Assembly (NCBI GenBank): GCA_947478395.1
Contig: CANJVR010000002.1
Span: 672,001-736,000, forward strand
DNA from: Opitutia bacterium
GTDB lineage: Bacteria > Verrucomicrobiota > Verrucomicrobiia > Opitutales > Opitutaceae
Reading direction: 5' to 3'
DNA length: 64,000 bases
Positions 47,743-53,879 of the stretch are shown here, piece by piece. The translations under genes and the position numbers were made by a program. Position 1 is the first letter of the stretch, and each line of letters begins with the position of its first letter. A model generated the notes under the pieces. That model saw only the letters and a program-made list of their open reading frames with translations, did no database searches and was not told the origin of the DNA.

Positions 47743-49236
47743 ATGAGTGACCAAAAAGAGCTGCTAACGACGAACCGCAAGGCTCTCACGATCAACCTCG
47801 ATGAACCGCGCTACGGAACGTTCGCCGAGATCGGCGCGGGCCAAGAAGTGGCGCGGGTGTTTTTTCAGGCCGGAGGTGCTTCCGGGACCATCGCGAAATC
47901 CATTTCGGCCTACGACATGACCTTCAGCGACGCCATCTATGGCAAGGCGCCACGTTACGTCTCGCGTGAACGCCTGCTGCTGATGCTCGACCGCGAGTAT
48001 CAATTGCTCATCGAACGCCTGGCAGCGCAGCGCGGCGATCGCACCACTTTCTTTGTTTTCGCCAACACGGTCTCGGCTCGGAATTTCAAGGGGACGAACG
48101 AGGCCCACGGCTGGCTCGGCGTCCGATTTCAAACCGCACCCGGCGATGAACCCAGCGATGTCCTCCTGCACGTCCGCATGTGGGACAAGGAAAACGTACT
48201 CCAGCAGCAGGCGCTCGGCATCATCGGCGTCAATCTCCTCTACGGCGCATTCTACTACCACGCGGACCCGAAAAAATTAATCGAGTCGCTTCTCGACGGC
48301 CTTTCGTCGGATCGCATCGAGGTCGATATGCTCAAGCTCACCGGCCCGGCGTTCAAGAACGTCGATAACCGGCTCATGTCACTCTGCCTCGTGCAGTACG
48401 GCCTCACCAACGCGGTGATGTTCGGCCCCAACGGCGATGTGCTCCAGCCGTCCGAGGTGCTCTACAAAAAGGCGATCCTCGTCGAGCGCGGTAGCTTCCG
48501 GCCGGTCACACATGTCAACGTCGACATGCTCACCTGCGCCACGGCCCAGTTCGTCCAGGAGTCACCTGTAAAGGGCAAGGATGTCGTGGTGCTCATGGAA
48601 ATCACGATGAACAACCTGCTCGCGGCCGGGGAAATCGATGCGGAAGATTTTCTCGCGCGCGTCGACCTGTTGGGCGACATCGGCTTCACGGTGCTGATTT
48701 CCAACTACTCCGAGTACTACCGGCTCACGTCTTACTTCCGGCGGTACACGAAGGAAATGATCGGCGTCGCAATGGGCATCAACAACCTGATCGAGATTTT
48801 CAACGAGAAGTACTACGAGAATCTCGAAGGTGGCATTCTAGAATCGTTCGGGCGCCTCTTCCGGAACTCCGTCAAGCTGTACATCTATCCAATGCGCCAG
48901 GAAGGCTACGACCGCTACAGCACGGCGAGCGACAGTGCGTACGGCGGCGGAACCGTGACCACCCACGCGTTCGCTTCCTCGGTGCTGATCAACGCGAAGA
49001 ACGTCCACATCGTCGACCGCCTGCGCAATCTCTACGCCCATTTGCTCGAGGCGCACTACATCGAGTGCATCATTGGCTTCGATCAGAGCATCCTGCATAT
49101 TTTCTCCCGCGACGTCCTCCGCCGCATCAAGGAAGGCGATACCCAATGGGAAACGATGGTGCCCACCGCCGTGGTGTCCGCGATCAAGAAGCGCGGATTG
49201 TTCGGCTACACCGCCGCCATCAAGCAGGCCAGTTAA
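47743..49236 (+). CDS. Conserved cytoplasmic protein with CinA-like N-terminal and nucleotidyltransferase (NadD-like) C-terminal domains
   Basis: YGTFAEIGAGQEV...YVSRERL; RGSFRPVT; C-terminal MVPTAVVSAIKKRGLF. No signal peptide or barrel pattern. Confidence 0.65.
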   Translation: MSDQKELLTTNRKALTINLDEPRYGTFAEIGAGQEVARVFFQAGGASGTIAKSISAYDMTFSDAIYGKAPRYVSRERLLLMLDREYQLLIERLAAQRGDRTTFFVFANTVSARNFKGTNEAHGWLGVRFQTAPGDEPSDVLLHVRMWDKENVLQQQALGIIGVNLLYGAFYYHADPKKLIESLLDGLSSDRIEVDMLKLTGPAFKNVDNRLMSLCLVQYGLTNAVMFGPNGDVLQPSEVLYKKAILVERGSFRPVTHVNVDMLTCATAQFVQESPVKGKDVVVLMEITMNNLLAAGEIDAEDFLARVDLLGDIGFTVLISNYSEYYRLTSYFRRYTKEMIGVAMGINNLIEIFNEKYYENLEGGILESFGRLFRNSVKLYIYPMRQEGYDRYSTASDSAYGGGTVTTHAFASSVLINAKNVHIVDRLRNLYAHLLEAHYIECIIGFDQSILHIFSRDVLRRIKEGDTQWETMVPTAVVSAIKKRGLFGYTAAIKQAS

Positions 49237-49390: not shown

Positions 49391-50482
49391 CTACACCAAC
49401 GGCACAGCCAGTCCCAGCACAGCGGGGGTGGATTTAACGTGACGCCAGCGCCACGTATCCAAATCAGGCCAGCGCCCGACGGTCAGTTGCACCTCGATCT
49501 GGTCACCCACGGCAAAATCATCGCGCTCGCACCGCAAAATCCGGAAGCCCCAGTGGGGCGCGCGGCAGGGATCGAGCGGATTGGAGCTCAACGTCAGATC
49601 GTCATCAACCCGCGCGCGAAAATAAACGGCCAGCCCATCTAGCCGCCCCGCGTTGACCACCGTCCGCCGGAACGTCACCTCACCCGGCAGATCGCCCTCA
49701 TTGAGCGTTTGGAGGTCGATCGTCAGCAAGGGCTCGGGCTCGCCGAGAAAATGCTCGACGAGATGGAGGTCGGTACTGACGAGTTGATAATAATTCGGAT
49801 CCTGCGGCCGGTGCCGTTCCAGCGAGGCGTAGTCGAATCCGCACACCTCAAGCTCCCAGATAAACGGCACGAGCCGATCATCGCGCACTTTGATCGGCTC
49901 ACAGAAGAACTCAAAAGCACTCGGCAAAATGAGGCCGCCAGGCTTGAGCACGCGGTCCCGCAGATCAGCAACGTTTGCAACCATGCCTTCATCGAAAAGG
50001 CCGTCACCCATTTGCTCGTGCAAGATGACGTCCACCCGCTGCGTCACCTTGAAACCCGTGCTGTGCGTGGCGATGAACTCCACTTCCTCAATCCCATTTT
50101 CCACCGCGAGTGTGCGGGCGTGTTTTAAAATTTCCGAATGGTCGATCGCGTACACATGCGCGGCTCCCCGCCGCGCGGCGAGTGCCGCCAGGATGCCTGT
50201 GCCCGTGCCTAGGTCGATGACGCGGTCCCCGGGCTGGATGTGGCGGGTGATCGCCGCGTCGTAAAATGCCATGCGACGCTGATCCGCCAGCATGCGCTCC
50301 TGCGCGTGAAAACCCGCAAACATACGGCCGTTGTGCGCGCGATAATCGGATTCAGCCGAGAGCGGCGGATAAACCCACGCGGCAAAACGGGGCCGGGCCT
50401 CAATCCACGCCCGCAACATCCAGCTGCACTGCCGGCAGAAGCCAAAAACGCGAACGCTGAGAGATTGGAGCAGTGATAACAT
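49391..50482 (-). CDS. PRMT-like (protein-arginine N-methyltransferase fold) SAM methyltransferase
   Basis: MLADQRR, VIDLGTGTGIL, VYAID, VDVILHEQMGDGLFDE (double-E loop), LKPGGLILP, LDGLAVYF, APHW. Confidence 0.85.
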   Translation of the reverse strand: MLSLLQSLSVRVFGFCRQCSWMLRAWIEARPRFAAWVYPPLSAESDYRAHNGRMFAGFHAQERMLADQRRMAFYDAAITRHIQPGDRVIDLGTGTGILAALAARRGAAHVYAIDHSEILKHARTLAVENGIEEVEFIATHSTGFKVTQRVDVILHEQMGDGLFDEGMVANVADLRDRVLKPGGLILPSAFEFFCEPIKVRDDRLVPFIWELEVCGFDYASLERHRPQDPNYYQLVSTDLHLVEHFLGEPEPLLTIDLQTLNEGDLPGEVTFRRTVVNAGRLDGLAVYFRARVDDDLTLSSNPLDPCRAPHWGFRILRCERDDFAVGDQIEVQLTVGRWPDLDTWRWRHVKSTPAVLGLAVPLV

Positions 50483-50582
50483 CGGAAGTATCAAGAGGCG
50501 AAATTAGGCCGCGGATAAATCCGCCCGGCACGCAACCATCTCTCGTGGTCGCCAGAACGTCGCTCCACAAAACCGGGGCATG

Positions 50583-50608
50583 AAAAAACACGGCGAGAGC
50601 CGTGTTTT
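50583..50608 (-). terminator. Intrinsic terminator after the small Lys-rich ORF
   Basis: Minus strand AAAACACGGC-TCTC-GCCGTGTTTTTT. Confidence 0.8.
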
Positions 50609-50650
50609 GCCTTTGCGCTGACGGCACCTTAAGGCGCCGAGTTAGACCGC

Positions 50651-50752
50651 TTAGCGGCTGCTCTTCTTGCCGCCTTTGGCGACTTTTTTCTTCGCAGCAG
50701 ATTTAGCGGGGGCTTTTTTAACAGGTTTCTTGGAGCTTTTTGATTTGGCCAT
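50651..50752 (-). CDS. 33-aa histone H1/histone-tail-like basic peptide
   Basis: Manual translation MAKSKSSKKPVKKAPAKSAAKKKVAKGGKKSSR*; ATG start, TAA stop, own terminator; below the ORF-track cutoff. Confidence 0.8.
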   Translation of the reverse strand: MAKSKSSKKPVKKAPAKSAAKKKVAKGGKKSSR

Positions 50753-50977: not shown

Positions 50978-53719
50978 CTAGAGGAGCTCCCCGTCCGGCG
51001 TCGAAGTGCGCCGCGCCGTGACCCCCGCCAGACGACGGCAGGTTGCCAGCGTATCGATCTCGCCCACTGTCTTTTCATTACGGATACGGGCAATGCGGGG
51101 AAAACGCAGCGCAAAACCGCTCTGGTGCCGCGTACTCGGCTGGATCGAATCAAAGGCGATCTCAATGACCGTGTCAGGCACAACGTGACGCCGCCGGCCC
51201 TGGACCTCGAGTGTCGTTTCCAAAAAATGACCGGTCAGCGCGGCGATCTTAGCATCCGTGAGACCCGAGTATGCTTTCCCCACCGTGAGGAGCCGATTGC
51301 CGTTTTCTTCGTCGCGGATGGCGAACGTGTAATCGCTAAGCACATCGCGACGCTTGCCGTGACCGAACTCGACCGCGACCACGACAACATCGAGCGTGGC
51401 GTAGGCTTTTTTAAATTTGATCCACGCGAGTCCGCGCCGACCCGGCGTGTAAAGACTCATCGGATCTTTCGCCATCAGGCCTTCGTGTCCACGCGCGCGC
51501 GCGGCGAGGAACGCGGCCTCGATTTCGCGCGCCGTGCTGGCTTGTGTCACCGGCGCGATGGCCAACGACGTTCGTCGGGCCCCGCTTGAAACCGAGAGGA
51601 TTTCCGCCAGCGCGGCGCGGCGTTCCAGCAAAGGAGTTTTCAGCCAGCTCACACCGTCCCGCCAAAGAAGATCGTAGACCGAAAAAGCGACCGGGATTTC
51701 GGCGCCGAGGAAAAAATCGTCACCCTTGCGCCCGAGTCTTTTTTGCAGCTCGGCAAACGGCAGCGCGCGATCCCCCCGCCACGCGAGCAGTTCGCCGTCG
51801 AGGATACAGTCGGCCGGTAGCGATTGAGCGGCGCGCACGAGGTCGGGAAATTGCTCCGTGATCCGGTGTAGATCGCGCGAGTACAGCTCGACCCGTTCGC
51901 CCTGCTTGTGCAGCTGGCAGCGGATGCCGTCGTACTTTTCCTCGAGCCAAACCGGGGCGGCCAGGCGCTCGAGCACCGCCGTGGCGGTGGGCTCGGGACT
52001 CGCGAGCATAAATTGGACGGGGTGAAACACCCGTAGCTGGATCGCTTCGAGTTGACCGGCAAACGCCGCGACCGTGACCGCGGACAAATCGCCGCACTGC
52101 ATGTGGGCTTCACGAATAAGATCGAGCGCCTGGCCAGTGGCCGCCGCGAGCGCTTCCTCCACCAGGCTGTCCTTCAAACCAATGCGGAGATCGCCGAGAA
52201 TAATCTTGGTCAGATATTTTGCTTCGAACGGCGCTAGCGTCGCGAAACGAGCCTGAAGCAGGTCGAGTTTCGCCGTGGGCTCACGCTTCGTGGCCAGCAA
52301 AGCCAATAGTTCGGCGAGGTCCGCCAACGCCCATGGCTGCGGCGCGGTACGGCCGGTGAGCACCGCCTCGGCGGCATCGCCCGCGTCAGGGAATCTTTGA
52401 TAAGCGGCGCGGTAGTCCGCCGGAGTCAAACCGGCGACGGCGAGCACCGCACGCTGCACCACCGCCCACCCGAGATTGAGCGTACGGTCCGAGGATTGGG
52501 GAAAAGCCCGTCCGGTTAAATAAAGCGAGGCGAGTGCGGCATTTCCCGGCGTAAGCCGCCCCAGGTAGTCGCGGATCAAGGTGATCTTATCCCGACGTGC
52601 GGCGGTGAGCTTGAGCTGATCCGCGAGTCGGGAAAACGCGGCGAAATCCTCGGGGCACGTGACCGCCGGAGCCGTCGGCAAAGTTGTCGAAGGCAAATCC
52701 GATCTCAGCGGCGACCGGCGGATATTTTGCGCCGGAAGTGAAAGCTCGATCTGGTTGGGCTGATTAATCGCCCACGCGTCGACCCCGCGCTCGCGCAGCG
52801 TCTGCGCGAATTGCGCGGAGAATCCATGCAGCGTCAGCACGCGTCGCGGTTGCACCAATTCGACAAACCGCAGGAGGTCGTTGAAGTCGGCGTGGTCGGA
52901 AAGCGGGAACGCCGCGTCACATTGATAGCGATAAATCGCGGCGGGATCGAGCGCCCAGCCGGTGATGACCGCCGTGCGGTGACGCGTAATTTTCTTCAGG
53001 AAAGCGGAGGCGCTCGACTGGGGCGGACAAATCACGACGTGGCCCGCAAGTTCGGGCGCGGAAAATTCACGGTAAGCAGGAAACGTCAGACCCAGTTCCT
53101 CGCAGACCCGCGTGAGTTTTAGCGTTTGCGGATGGAGCATCACGGGCAACCCGGCACCCGCAAGACTCGCCAGCAGTTCCTGGCTCTTCCCGAGACTGTA
53201 ACCGAAGAGCACAGGCGTCTCGCCGTCTTCGAGGGTCTGATGACAAAAGAGAACAATCGCGGCGAGCACCTCGACGGTGGGAGGAAGCACGTAGCGCGGC
53301 AGACCGTAGGTCGTTTCCATGATGAGCACATCGGCGCGCGGCGTGGCGCATGGCTCCGCGGAAAGGCCGCGGCGGAGTTTGAAGTCGCCGGTGTACAACA
53401 AAGAACCGTGCGCGGCGTGATCGAGCAGACATTGGGCCGAGCCAAAAATATGGCCCGCCGGATGGAGTGTCACAGTGGTATCGGCGGTGAGCTGTTCGGT
53501 GTGGCCGAAAGGCAGCACGTGTTCGATTCGCTTCGCCGGTAGTCGTGCCCGCATGAGCCGGGCGGTTCCGGACGAGCAGAGAATTTCCCGATGGGCCGCG
53601 AGGTGGTCGAAATGCGCATGGGAAACAAACGAGCGCGCGGTCGGAAAGTGCGCGTCGAGCCACCAGTCGGTTTGCGGCAGATAAAGGCTGCCCGAACGAA
53701 ATTGAATGTCCCAAGCCAT
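50978..53719 (-). CDS. MBL-fold (beta-CASP-like) nuclease fused to ATP-dependent DNA ligase
   Basis: SHAHFDH, AGHIFGS, YTGDF, METTYG, LSDHAD; ligase EEKYDGIR, LDGE, EGLMAK, ALRFPR. Confidence 0.92.
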   Translation of the reverse strand: MAWDIQFRSGSLYLPQTDWWLDAHFPTARSFVSHAHFDHLAAHREILCSSGTARLMRARLPAKRIEHVLPFGHTEQLTADTTVTLHPAGHIFGSAQCLLDHAAHGSLLYTGDFKLRRGLSAEPCATPRADVLIMETTYGLPRYVLPPTVEVLAAIVLFCHQTLEDGETPVLFGYSLGKSQELLASLAGAGLPVMLHPQTLKLTRVCEELGLTFPAYREFSAPELAGHVVICPPQSSASAFLKKITRHRTAVITGWALDPAAIYRYQCDAAFPLSDHADFNDLLRFVELVQPRRVLTLHGFSAQFAQTLRERGVDAWAINQPNQIELSLPAQNIRRSPLRSDLPSTTLPTAPAVTCPEDFAAFSRLADQLKLTAARRDKITLIRDYLGRLTPGNAALASLYLTGRAFPQSSDRTLNLGWAVVQRAVLAVAGLTPADYRAAYQRFPDAGDAAEAVLTGRTAPQPWALADLAELLALLATKREPTAKLDLLQARFATLAPFEAKYLTKIILGDLRIGLKDSLVEEALAAATGQALDLIREAHMQCGDLSAVTVAAFAGQLEAIQLRVFHPVQFMLASPEPTATAVLERLAAPVWLEEKYDGIRCQLHKQGERVELYSRDLHRITEQFPDLVRAAQSLPADCILDGELLAWRGDRALPFAELQKRLGRKGDDFFLGAEIPVAFSVYDLLWRDGVSWLKTPLLERRAALAEILSVSSGARRTSLAIAPVTQASTAREIEAAFLAARARGHEGLMAKDPMSLYTPGRRGLAWIKFKKAYATLDVVVVAVEFGHGKRRDVLSDYTFAIRDEENGNRLLTVGKAYSGLTDAKIAALTGHFLETTLEVQGRRRHVVPDTVIEIAFDSIQPSTRHQSGFALRFPRIARIRNEKTVGEIDTLATCRRLAGVTARRTSTPDGELL

Positions 53720-53806
53720 CAGGGAAGGAAAACGCAGGGGACGCGCCCCCGCGTTGGACGCAAGCCCAAGCTCGGAAAATCGCAGGAGCTCAGGGTCCCG
53801 ATGCAG

Positions 53807-53879
53807 AAGGGGTGCCCCACCCCGCTTGGACGTTATATCGCCGGCGACGCTTTTGCGGGGTGAGGGCACCCCGCCTCCA
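53807..53879. repeat. REP-like doublet
   Basis: GGGGTGCCCCACCCCGC...GCGGGGTGAGGGCACCCCGCCTCCA. Confidence 0.65.

Follow-up and report, generated by a model that had tools for sequence, protein, structure and literature searches.

A predicted PRMT-fold methyltransferase of Opitutaceae with a type I-like active site and eukaryote-like relatives

Methyl-arginine is common in bacterial proteomes, and in eukaryotes the typical substrates of protein arginine methyltransferases (PRMTs) are RGG-type RNA-binding proteins and helicases. According to PMC4655611, the double-E glutamates are the only residues conserved in all PRMTs, type I enzymes are determined by M163, H415 and YFxxY (CARM1 numbering), and the PRMT7 of Trypanosoma brucei carries Gln329 at the THW position. 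Bacterial PRMT homologues are described, in PMC3417536, as members of secondary-metabolite pathways and as the proposed source of the eukaryotic PRMTs. Two bacterial guanidino methyltransferases are also on record: SznE, an N-methyltransferase of a metabolite (PMC12637814), and BlsL, which methylates delta-N (PMC5572114). In the open-access literature, we found no report of the verrucomicrobial clade described below, no bacterial enzyme of this fold that had been tested biochemically and acts on a protein of the cell, and no link between verrucomicrobial and algal PRMTs.

The window, a stretch of 64,000 nucleotides from an Opitutia bacterium, contains a gene with the following features:

49391..50482, minus strand: PRMT-fold methyltransferase ORF of 363 aa, from the ATG at 50482 to the stop at 49391, single copy in the genome
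50363..50482, minus strand: N-terminal basic amphipathic helix, residues 1-40 (model, alignments and hydrophobic moment)
50240..50356, minus strand: alphaX/alphaY helices, residues 43-81, with N51, F55, Q61, E62, M64, D67 and R70 (PRMT6/PRMT8 alignments and conservation counts)
50195..50221, minus strand: SAM-binding motif I, residues 88-96, with the post-I Asp114 after it
49988..50017, minus strand: double-E loop E156-E165, with the acidic D160 and D164 inside it and M167 after it
49805..49879, minus strand: dimerization arm, residues 202-226 (dimer model; low confidence in the monomer model)
49430..49918, minus strand: PRMT beta-barrel, residues 189-351, with the arm inserted (model and fold matches; Pfam PRMT_C below its cut-off)
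49550..49558, minus strand: PHW, the THW-loop equivalent, residues 309-311 with H310 and W311 (aligned to the THW of PRMT6)

The genome is 98.8% complete, and the GC3 of the gene is ordinary (0.72 compared with a genome mean of 0.74). An in-frame TTG lies upstream at 50494, and 25 aligned orthologues favor the ATG. All of the motifs quoted in the initial annotation are present in the translation. When the protein was searched against the PDB with phmmer, there were 68 matches at E<=0.001, and the best 60 of these were all arginine methyltransferases but one named MGC151858 (8rbk), whose entry title says PRMT9. The top match, PRMT6 (E 2e-25), extends over residues 55-318, covering the Rossmann domain, the arm and the barrel. 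The predicted structure has the PRMT-family arrangement of a class I SAM Rossmann domain followed by a PRMT beta-barrel, and Pfam PRMT_C gives a weak match to residues 212-312 (E 7.7e-5; 23.1 bits, with the cut-off at 27 bits). The head-to-tail dimer of the family is present by prediction only: the homodimer score is 0.79, against 0.01 for the best control, on a scale whose mark is reached by 20 of 30 solved pairs and 1 of 23 single chains, and the prediction may echo solved PRMT dimers remembered by the predictor. In the dimer model, the arm (202-226) lies against the alphaY and Rossmann helices of the other subunit (55-75, 95-101, 121-129). The ORF encodes a real, intact PRMT-fold protein, a variant of a known family, with likeness far beyond chance.

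The initial annotation had read a Rossmann domain, arm and barrel from the letters alone, and the PDB matches, the predicted structure, in which the barrel was found and PRMTs are the structural matches, and the dimer model bear out that part. The novelty that it implied was overrated. Bacterial PRMT relatives are already known and in print (PMC3417536), and many of the orthologues carry machine-made PRMT names. The annotation was also right that this is not a PrmA, the L11 lysine methyltransferase whose name is the usual automatic one. The likeness to PrmA is limited to the class I Rossmann motif I region: NCBIfam PrmA models score 32-38 bits against cut-offs of 183-269 (e.g. 38.4 compared with 188) and do not match over the full length, while Pfam PrmA passes its cut-off but covers residues 78-155 only. 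We also rejected a type II PRMT5, which needs a Phe at alphaY (F327) and an N-terminal TIM barrel; here there is Met64, with 40 residues before the core. By structural fold matching, type I and type III (the TbPRMT7 type) are tied, and the profile scores are 182 bits for type I PRMTs compared with 137 bits for TbPRMT7.

Active-site residues were mapped through the PRMT6 and PRMT8 alignments, and conservation was counted in an alignment of 152 domains, 146 of which were grouped as 39 verrucomicrobial, 20 eukaryote-like, 63 wider-family and 24 outgroup rows. E156 and E165 are nine residues apart, align to the double-E loop of PRMT6, and are invariant in the verrucomicrobial (39/39) and eukaryote-like (20/20) rows; in the wider family they are kept in 56/63 and 60/63 rows, respectively. 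Two type I residues are kept, M64 at the CARM1 M163 position and H310 at the CARM1 H415 position, and the PRMT7-type Gln of the THW loop is absent, His310 standing in its place. H310 is found in 37/39 verrucomicrobial and 20/20 eukaryote-like rows. W311 is kept in all 39 verrucomicrobial rows. The YFxxY of helix alphaX, a type I feature, is replaced by N51-x-x-x-F55, in which N51 is kept in 38/39 verrucomicrobial, 20/20 eukaryote-like and 45/63 wider-family rows and F55 in 38/39 verrucomicrobial rows, and the position of the alphaY His is Gln61. Judged by alignment, then, the enzyme is a PRMT by fold and putative catalytic pair, and it is type I-like with one type I feature failed because M64 and H310 are kept while YFxxY has become NxxxF.

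In the structure model, the N-terminal extension forms helices at residues 2-28 and 31-37. Its hydrophobic moment is 0.44, compared with 0.51-0.77 in seven orthologues, and it has no hydrophobic h-region. In alignments, this conserved 40-aa extension is loosely common to the wider bacterial family and absent in the eukaryote-like relatives. One possible role for it is to hold the dimer at the inner membrane face or on nucleic acid. The initial annotation had overlooked this extension, as well as Gln61 and the replacement of YFxxY.

The gene belongs to a broad bacterial family, in which 779 homologues were found at E<=0.001 among 8000 candidates scored. Named orthologues come from Opitutaceae, Opitutus and Cephaloticoccus, one of them from a cultured Opitutaceae (L055), and many are named "type I protein arginine methyltransferase" or "protein arginine N-methyltransferase 1" (JGI). 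Within 200 family genomes, 47 have an orthologue (E<1e-100), including 6/6 genus-mates, and one (G037) has two copies; the weaker matches belong either to other methyltransferases or to a second, more distant family. The latter is PRMT-like over its full length (E 1e-42 to 1e-29) and occurs in G036, G061, G186, G194, G171, G070, G115, G010, G021 and G077. Across 300 genomes of the phylum, the family profile at E<=1e-40 matched 9/26 genomes of the same family and 1/274 others, and this single match (L042) falls outside the clade in the tree. In a pattern scan of all species, among the matches listed, the clade gains Oceanipulchritudo, Luteolibacter and Akkermansiaceae bins, and the wider family gains Chloroflexota, Actinomycetota and Pseudomonadota bins. 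One wider-family member, in a Planctomycetaceae bin (L060, 1070-2118), is apparently split over two frames and was excluded from the trees.

The presence of an orthologue in only 47/200 family genomes suggests that the gene is dispensable, and RNA-library contigs cover only a 151-base 5' piece of it (50316-50466), in 1/3 runs. It also appears to spread and relocate among Verrucomicrobiota. We consider that it moves within the family because the genus-mates' copies lie at another locus, beside dxs, and because, in a tree of 27 orthologues, a group made up of this copy and the four genus-mates sampled is rejected (AU p 0.010). Identity to those copies is 71-73%, compared with up to 79% in another genus and 85-86% for the genus-mates' dxs. 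This patchy, relocating pattern would suit a mobile conflict gene whose arginine methylation shields host targets from phage or toxin proteins, or disables those proteins. We regard such a role as very improbable, given that the loci examined have no defense-island context, that there is no match among 72,556 plasmids and 50,697 phages and one weak match to a viral contig, and that GC3 is ordinary.

The preferred reading, which we think somewhat more probable than its negation, is a cytoplasmic omega-N arginine methyltransferase of PRMT fold that uses SAM, stands alone and acts on one or a few cellular proteins. Its computed part consists of the fold, the catalytic residues, the predicted homodimer, the family range and the tree position; SAM binding, the guanidinium pocket, the peptide groove and the products we infer from PRMT chemistry. 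SAM would bind at motif I and post-I with alphaX and alphaY folding over it, and the guanidinium would be held by E156 and E165 together with H310 and M64; the head-to-tail dimer would form the peptide groove. The expected product is monomethyl-arginine and possibly asymmetric dimethyl-arginine, the second methylation being uncertain because YFxxY is lost, though M64 and H310 are type I-like.

A protein substrate is suggested by the intact arm and barrel, the predicted dimer, the lack of pathway context and the RGG proteins encoded in the genome. The latter include a 134-aa RRM protein with GGRG repeats (G000:C3, locus L209 1321-1725) that adjoins an RG-tailed DEAD-box helicase; as a guess, this RGG-tailed RRM protein or the DEAD-box helicases could be substrates, and the acidic residues of the double-E loop would suit a basic one. 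We also observed in this genome (G000) several large proteins with long Gly/Arg-rich RGG insertions, most with signal-peptide-like N-termini (C1 895104-898847, C1 870008-872698, C2 787500-790292, C3 109886-112783 and C9 6430-9345).

Several observations count against this reading. YFxxY is absent, and the His of the THW loop is kept in only 24/63 wider-family rows. The gene is dispensable, with the sparse RNA-library cover given above. Bacterial PRMT homologues are reported mainly from secondary-metabolite operons, the bacterial sister groups of PRMTs occurring in antibiotic-like operons and NRPS domains (PMC3417536), and among the distant homologues found here L074, L068 and L070 lie in such clusters. 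The nearest non-verrucomicrobial bacterial relative (L054) is beside a polysaccharide flippase of Wzx type. The enzyme might instead N-methylate a small guanidino or amino compound, such as free arginine, agmatine, or an amino or guanidino group carried by a lipid-linked intermediate or an envelope glycan; the amphipathic helix would then anchor it at the membrane. Bacterial N-methyltransferases that act on arginine or guanidine groups of metabolites are known, such as SznE (PMC12637814) and BlsL (PMC5572114). The homologue in L074 follows PLP aminotransferase-type, DUF6190, DHDPS, iron redox and Rieske genes, and P0162 is fused to NTP_transf_5. We nevertheless find a small-molecule substrate rather unlikely, since the verrucomicrobial clade has no recurring pathway neighbors, the arm and barrel that would build a peptide groove are kept with a predicted dimer, and proteins of the L074 type match the family query only remotely (E about 1e-22).

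The flanking genes of the methyltransferase are:

47743-49236, plus strand: convergent neighbor of 497 aa, no clear family
50978-53869, minus strand: upstream neighbor of 963 aa, a fusion of a metallo-beta-lactamase-type nuclease and an ATP-dependent DNA ligase

The 497-aa protein has no Pfam or NCBIfam match above cut-off and a weak nicotinate-nucleotide adenylyltransferase match at its C-terminus. Across 118 loci, duplicates included, which form 78 groups at 90% identity, no neighbor within 1.6 kb occurs in more than 8 groups. We rejected a RiPP or NRPS tailoring methylase, as the gene is flanked here by the DNA ligase fusion and by an unrelated gene in convergent orientation, and no cluster recurs in the 78 locus groups. 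No RRE, TPR or NRPS fusion was found among the bacterial members examined, and of 10 longer homologues 9 are eukaryote-like and 1 has a weak NRPS match.

Some distant relatives have neighborhoods of their own. In L074 (2290-6957; also L072 and L076), a distant PRMT-fold gene closes the cluster that runs from the PLP aminotransferase-type to the Rieske gene, which we take to resemble the azomycin (nitroimidazole) pathway with a methyltransferase added; the L076 gene also adjoins an apparent conjugative coupling gene. The genes in L068 (346-7143) and L070 (3936-7131) adjoin asparagine-synthase-type genes that are presumably lasso cyclase-like. Another PRMT-fold subfamily, in two Myxococcota bins, has a gene that by eye is LexA-like about 1.6 kb (L065) or 0.1 kb (L069) upstream.

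Two further features lie between the methyltransferase gene and the ligase fusion:

50651..50752, minus strand: Lys/Ala-rich ORF of 33 aa that precedes the methyltransferase gene in the same orientation, with RNA-library contigs in 3/3 runs
50583..50612 (ends approximate), minus strand: hairpin then U run, between the 33-aa ORF and the methyltransferase gene (fold z -3.95 for 50570-50650)

The consensus scan does not list this hairpin. It is terminator-like, and the two genes may be transcribed apart; the 33-aa ORF is probably a neighbor and not a functional partner. We guess that its product resembles a small nucleoid- or ribosome-associated basic protein. Relatives of it occur at G000:C9 19914-20006 and near the methyltransferase gene in L047 and L157. 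A conserved family of 47-aa Lys/Gln-rich small proteins (L002 2717-2860, L005, L022, L131, L137, L176 and L200) is present in 54/200 family genomes and lies directly downstream of the methyltransferase gene in several.

Lys-rich ORFs (25-80 aa, within 600 bp) recur at 5/56 dereplicated loci, while the whole 3.3-Mb genome holds 15 such ORFs; those near the gene fall into three peptide families. One family is found in 20/47 genomes with an orthologue, compared with 34/153 without, and 5 of the 20 have it within about 1.1 kb of the methyltransferase gene, counts that come from a profile built on gene-adjacent copies and including 3 of the 5 adjacent genomes. The enzyme could accordingly be imagined to modify these peptides at Lys, at the N-terminus or at their single Arg. 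We give this little credence: the family is missing in 27/47 orthologue genomes, this one too, and kin are not independent, while the peptides hold 0-3 Arg, some none. The hairpin separates the 33-aa ORF from the gene, and double-E pockets are suited to guanidinium.

We searched 1.84 billion representatives and obtained 8556 matches at E<=0.001. Among the best 150 of these, the top matches outside Opitutaceae, at about 41-55% identity, have acidic and Lys/Ser-rich tails and in many cases carry a further methyltransferase-like domain at the N-terminus; the wider bacterial family comes next at about 32-46% identity. A eukaryote name was attached to 1/20 such proteins looked up (EukProt GSChrysophyteH1). 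Of the metagenome loci, 4/80 are of the eukaryote-like type, and we consider one of these contigs (L136) to be eukaryotic because its WD40-PFU-PUL (PLAA/Doa1) gene is interrupted by a 42-nt GT...AG stretch; the remaining sister rows are called eukaryote-like from clade and composition only. In the long eukaryote-like homologues P0123, P0133 and P0289-P0298, the extra domain lies at residues about 35-255, has no common Pfam family, and is nearest to oomycete-rich and viral/bacterial methyltransferase-like clusters.

Three trees were built, with FastTree (152 rows), IQ-TREE quick (55) and IQ-TREE careful (32; LG+G4, no mixture model), and rooted on more distant bacterial PRMT-like proteins. The careful-tree rows were hand-chosen to span the groups, with fragments and near-duplicates omitted, and canonical PRMTs are absent from the trees. 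All three recover a joint clade of Verrucomicrobiota, the eukaryote-like rows and one Pseudomonadales bin (support 99, 99 and 100/99), nested inside the wider bacterial family. A topology that places the eukaryote-like rows elsewhere than in this family is rejected (AU p 0.016), for a hypothesis framed after the first trees. Inside the joint clade, the careful tree gives 58/95 for eukaryote-like monophyly and 38/77 for verrucomicrobial monophyly, so the order is not settled. Compared with Opitutaceae-type proteins, the chrysophyte protein reaches about 330 bits; with solved PRMTs, it reaches no more than 82. Canonical PRMT classes do occur in stramenopiles (PMC3145265).

Based on these sequence relationships, the closest outside kin appear to be in microbial eukaryotes. 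This suggests that the gene crossed between bacteria and eukaryotes on a separate occasion. We favor the direction from bacterium to eukaryote because of the nesting and because the N-terminal helix is kept in bacteria; a relative of the gene would have passed into chrysophyte-type microbial eukaryotes independently of the canonical PRMTs. The nesting inside a broad bacterial family speaks against a eukaryote-derived gene. Movement from an algal or protist donor into Verrucomicrobiota could draw on the unsettled branching and on the aquatic habitats that the two presumably share. We judge it improbable: besides the nesting and the AU result, a return trip would require the helix, missing in the eukaryote-like proteins, to be regained, and the chrysophyte protein scores are far closer to Opitutaceae-type proteins than to solved PRMTs.

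The full proposal, a working protein arginine methyltransferase that marks RGG-type RNA-binding proteins and that a verrucomicrobial-type ancestor donated to chrysophyte-type protists, is one that we put forward as a doubtful but possible combination. If true, eukaryotes have a second PRMT lineage that had gone unrecognised, of NxxxF/HEQMG type and in many cases joined to a further methyltransferase-like domain, whose origin does not lie in the PRMTs that the last eukaryotic common ancestor possessed. Given the tie to eukaryotic sequences, the passage from bacterium to eukaryote that has been proposed as the origin of PRMTs may have recurred more recently, and therefore donor-like and recipient enzymes about 50% identical would be open to direct comparison. 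With its orphan status, altered alphaX motif and eukaryotic sister group, this branch offers an above-average test case, and a clean one, being a cluster-free, single-core enzyme with an intact pocket and with orthologues in cultured Opitutaceae. The loss of YFxxY while other type I residues stay is a natural experiment on product specificity.

Compared with known systems, the bacterial PRMT-like peptide methylases of Aravind and colleagues (PMC3417536) belong to the same superfamily radiation, and distant members found here lie in metabolite and lasso-type clusters; in contrast, the gene of the verrucomicrobial clade stands singly, an orphan outside any cluster. SznE and BlsL are a precedent for SAM-dependent guanidino methylation in bacteria (PMC12637814 and PMC5572114), but they act on small molecules in natural-product clusters and are likened here by their described reactions. 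The type III PRMT7 of Trypanosoma brucei, a single-core dimer (4m36/4m38/5eku), has Gln329 at the THW position where this enzyme has His. The best sequence scores are to the eukaryotic type I PRMTs (PRMT6, PRMT8/1, PRMT2, CARM1 and plant PRMT10), which have in common with it the Rossmann domain and beta-barrel, the double-E pair, the alphaY Met, the His and Trp of the THW loop and, by prediction here, the arm dimer. Structural identity to them is only 23-30%, methylation is the predicted function of the Opitutaceae enzyme, and it differs from them in having NxxxF for YFxxY, Gln for the alphaY His, HEQ ahead of the double-E loop and an extra amphipathic N-terminal helix.
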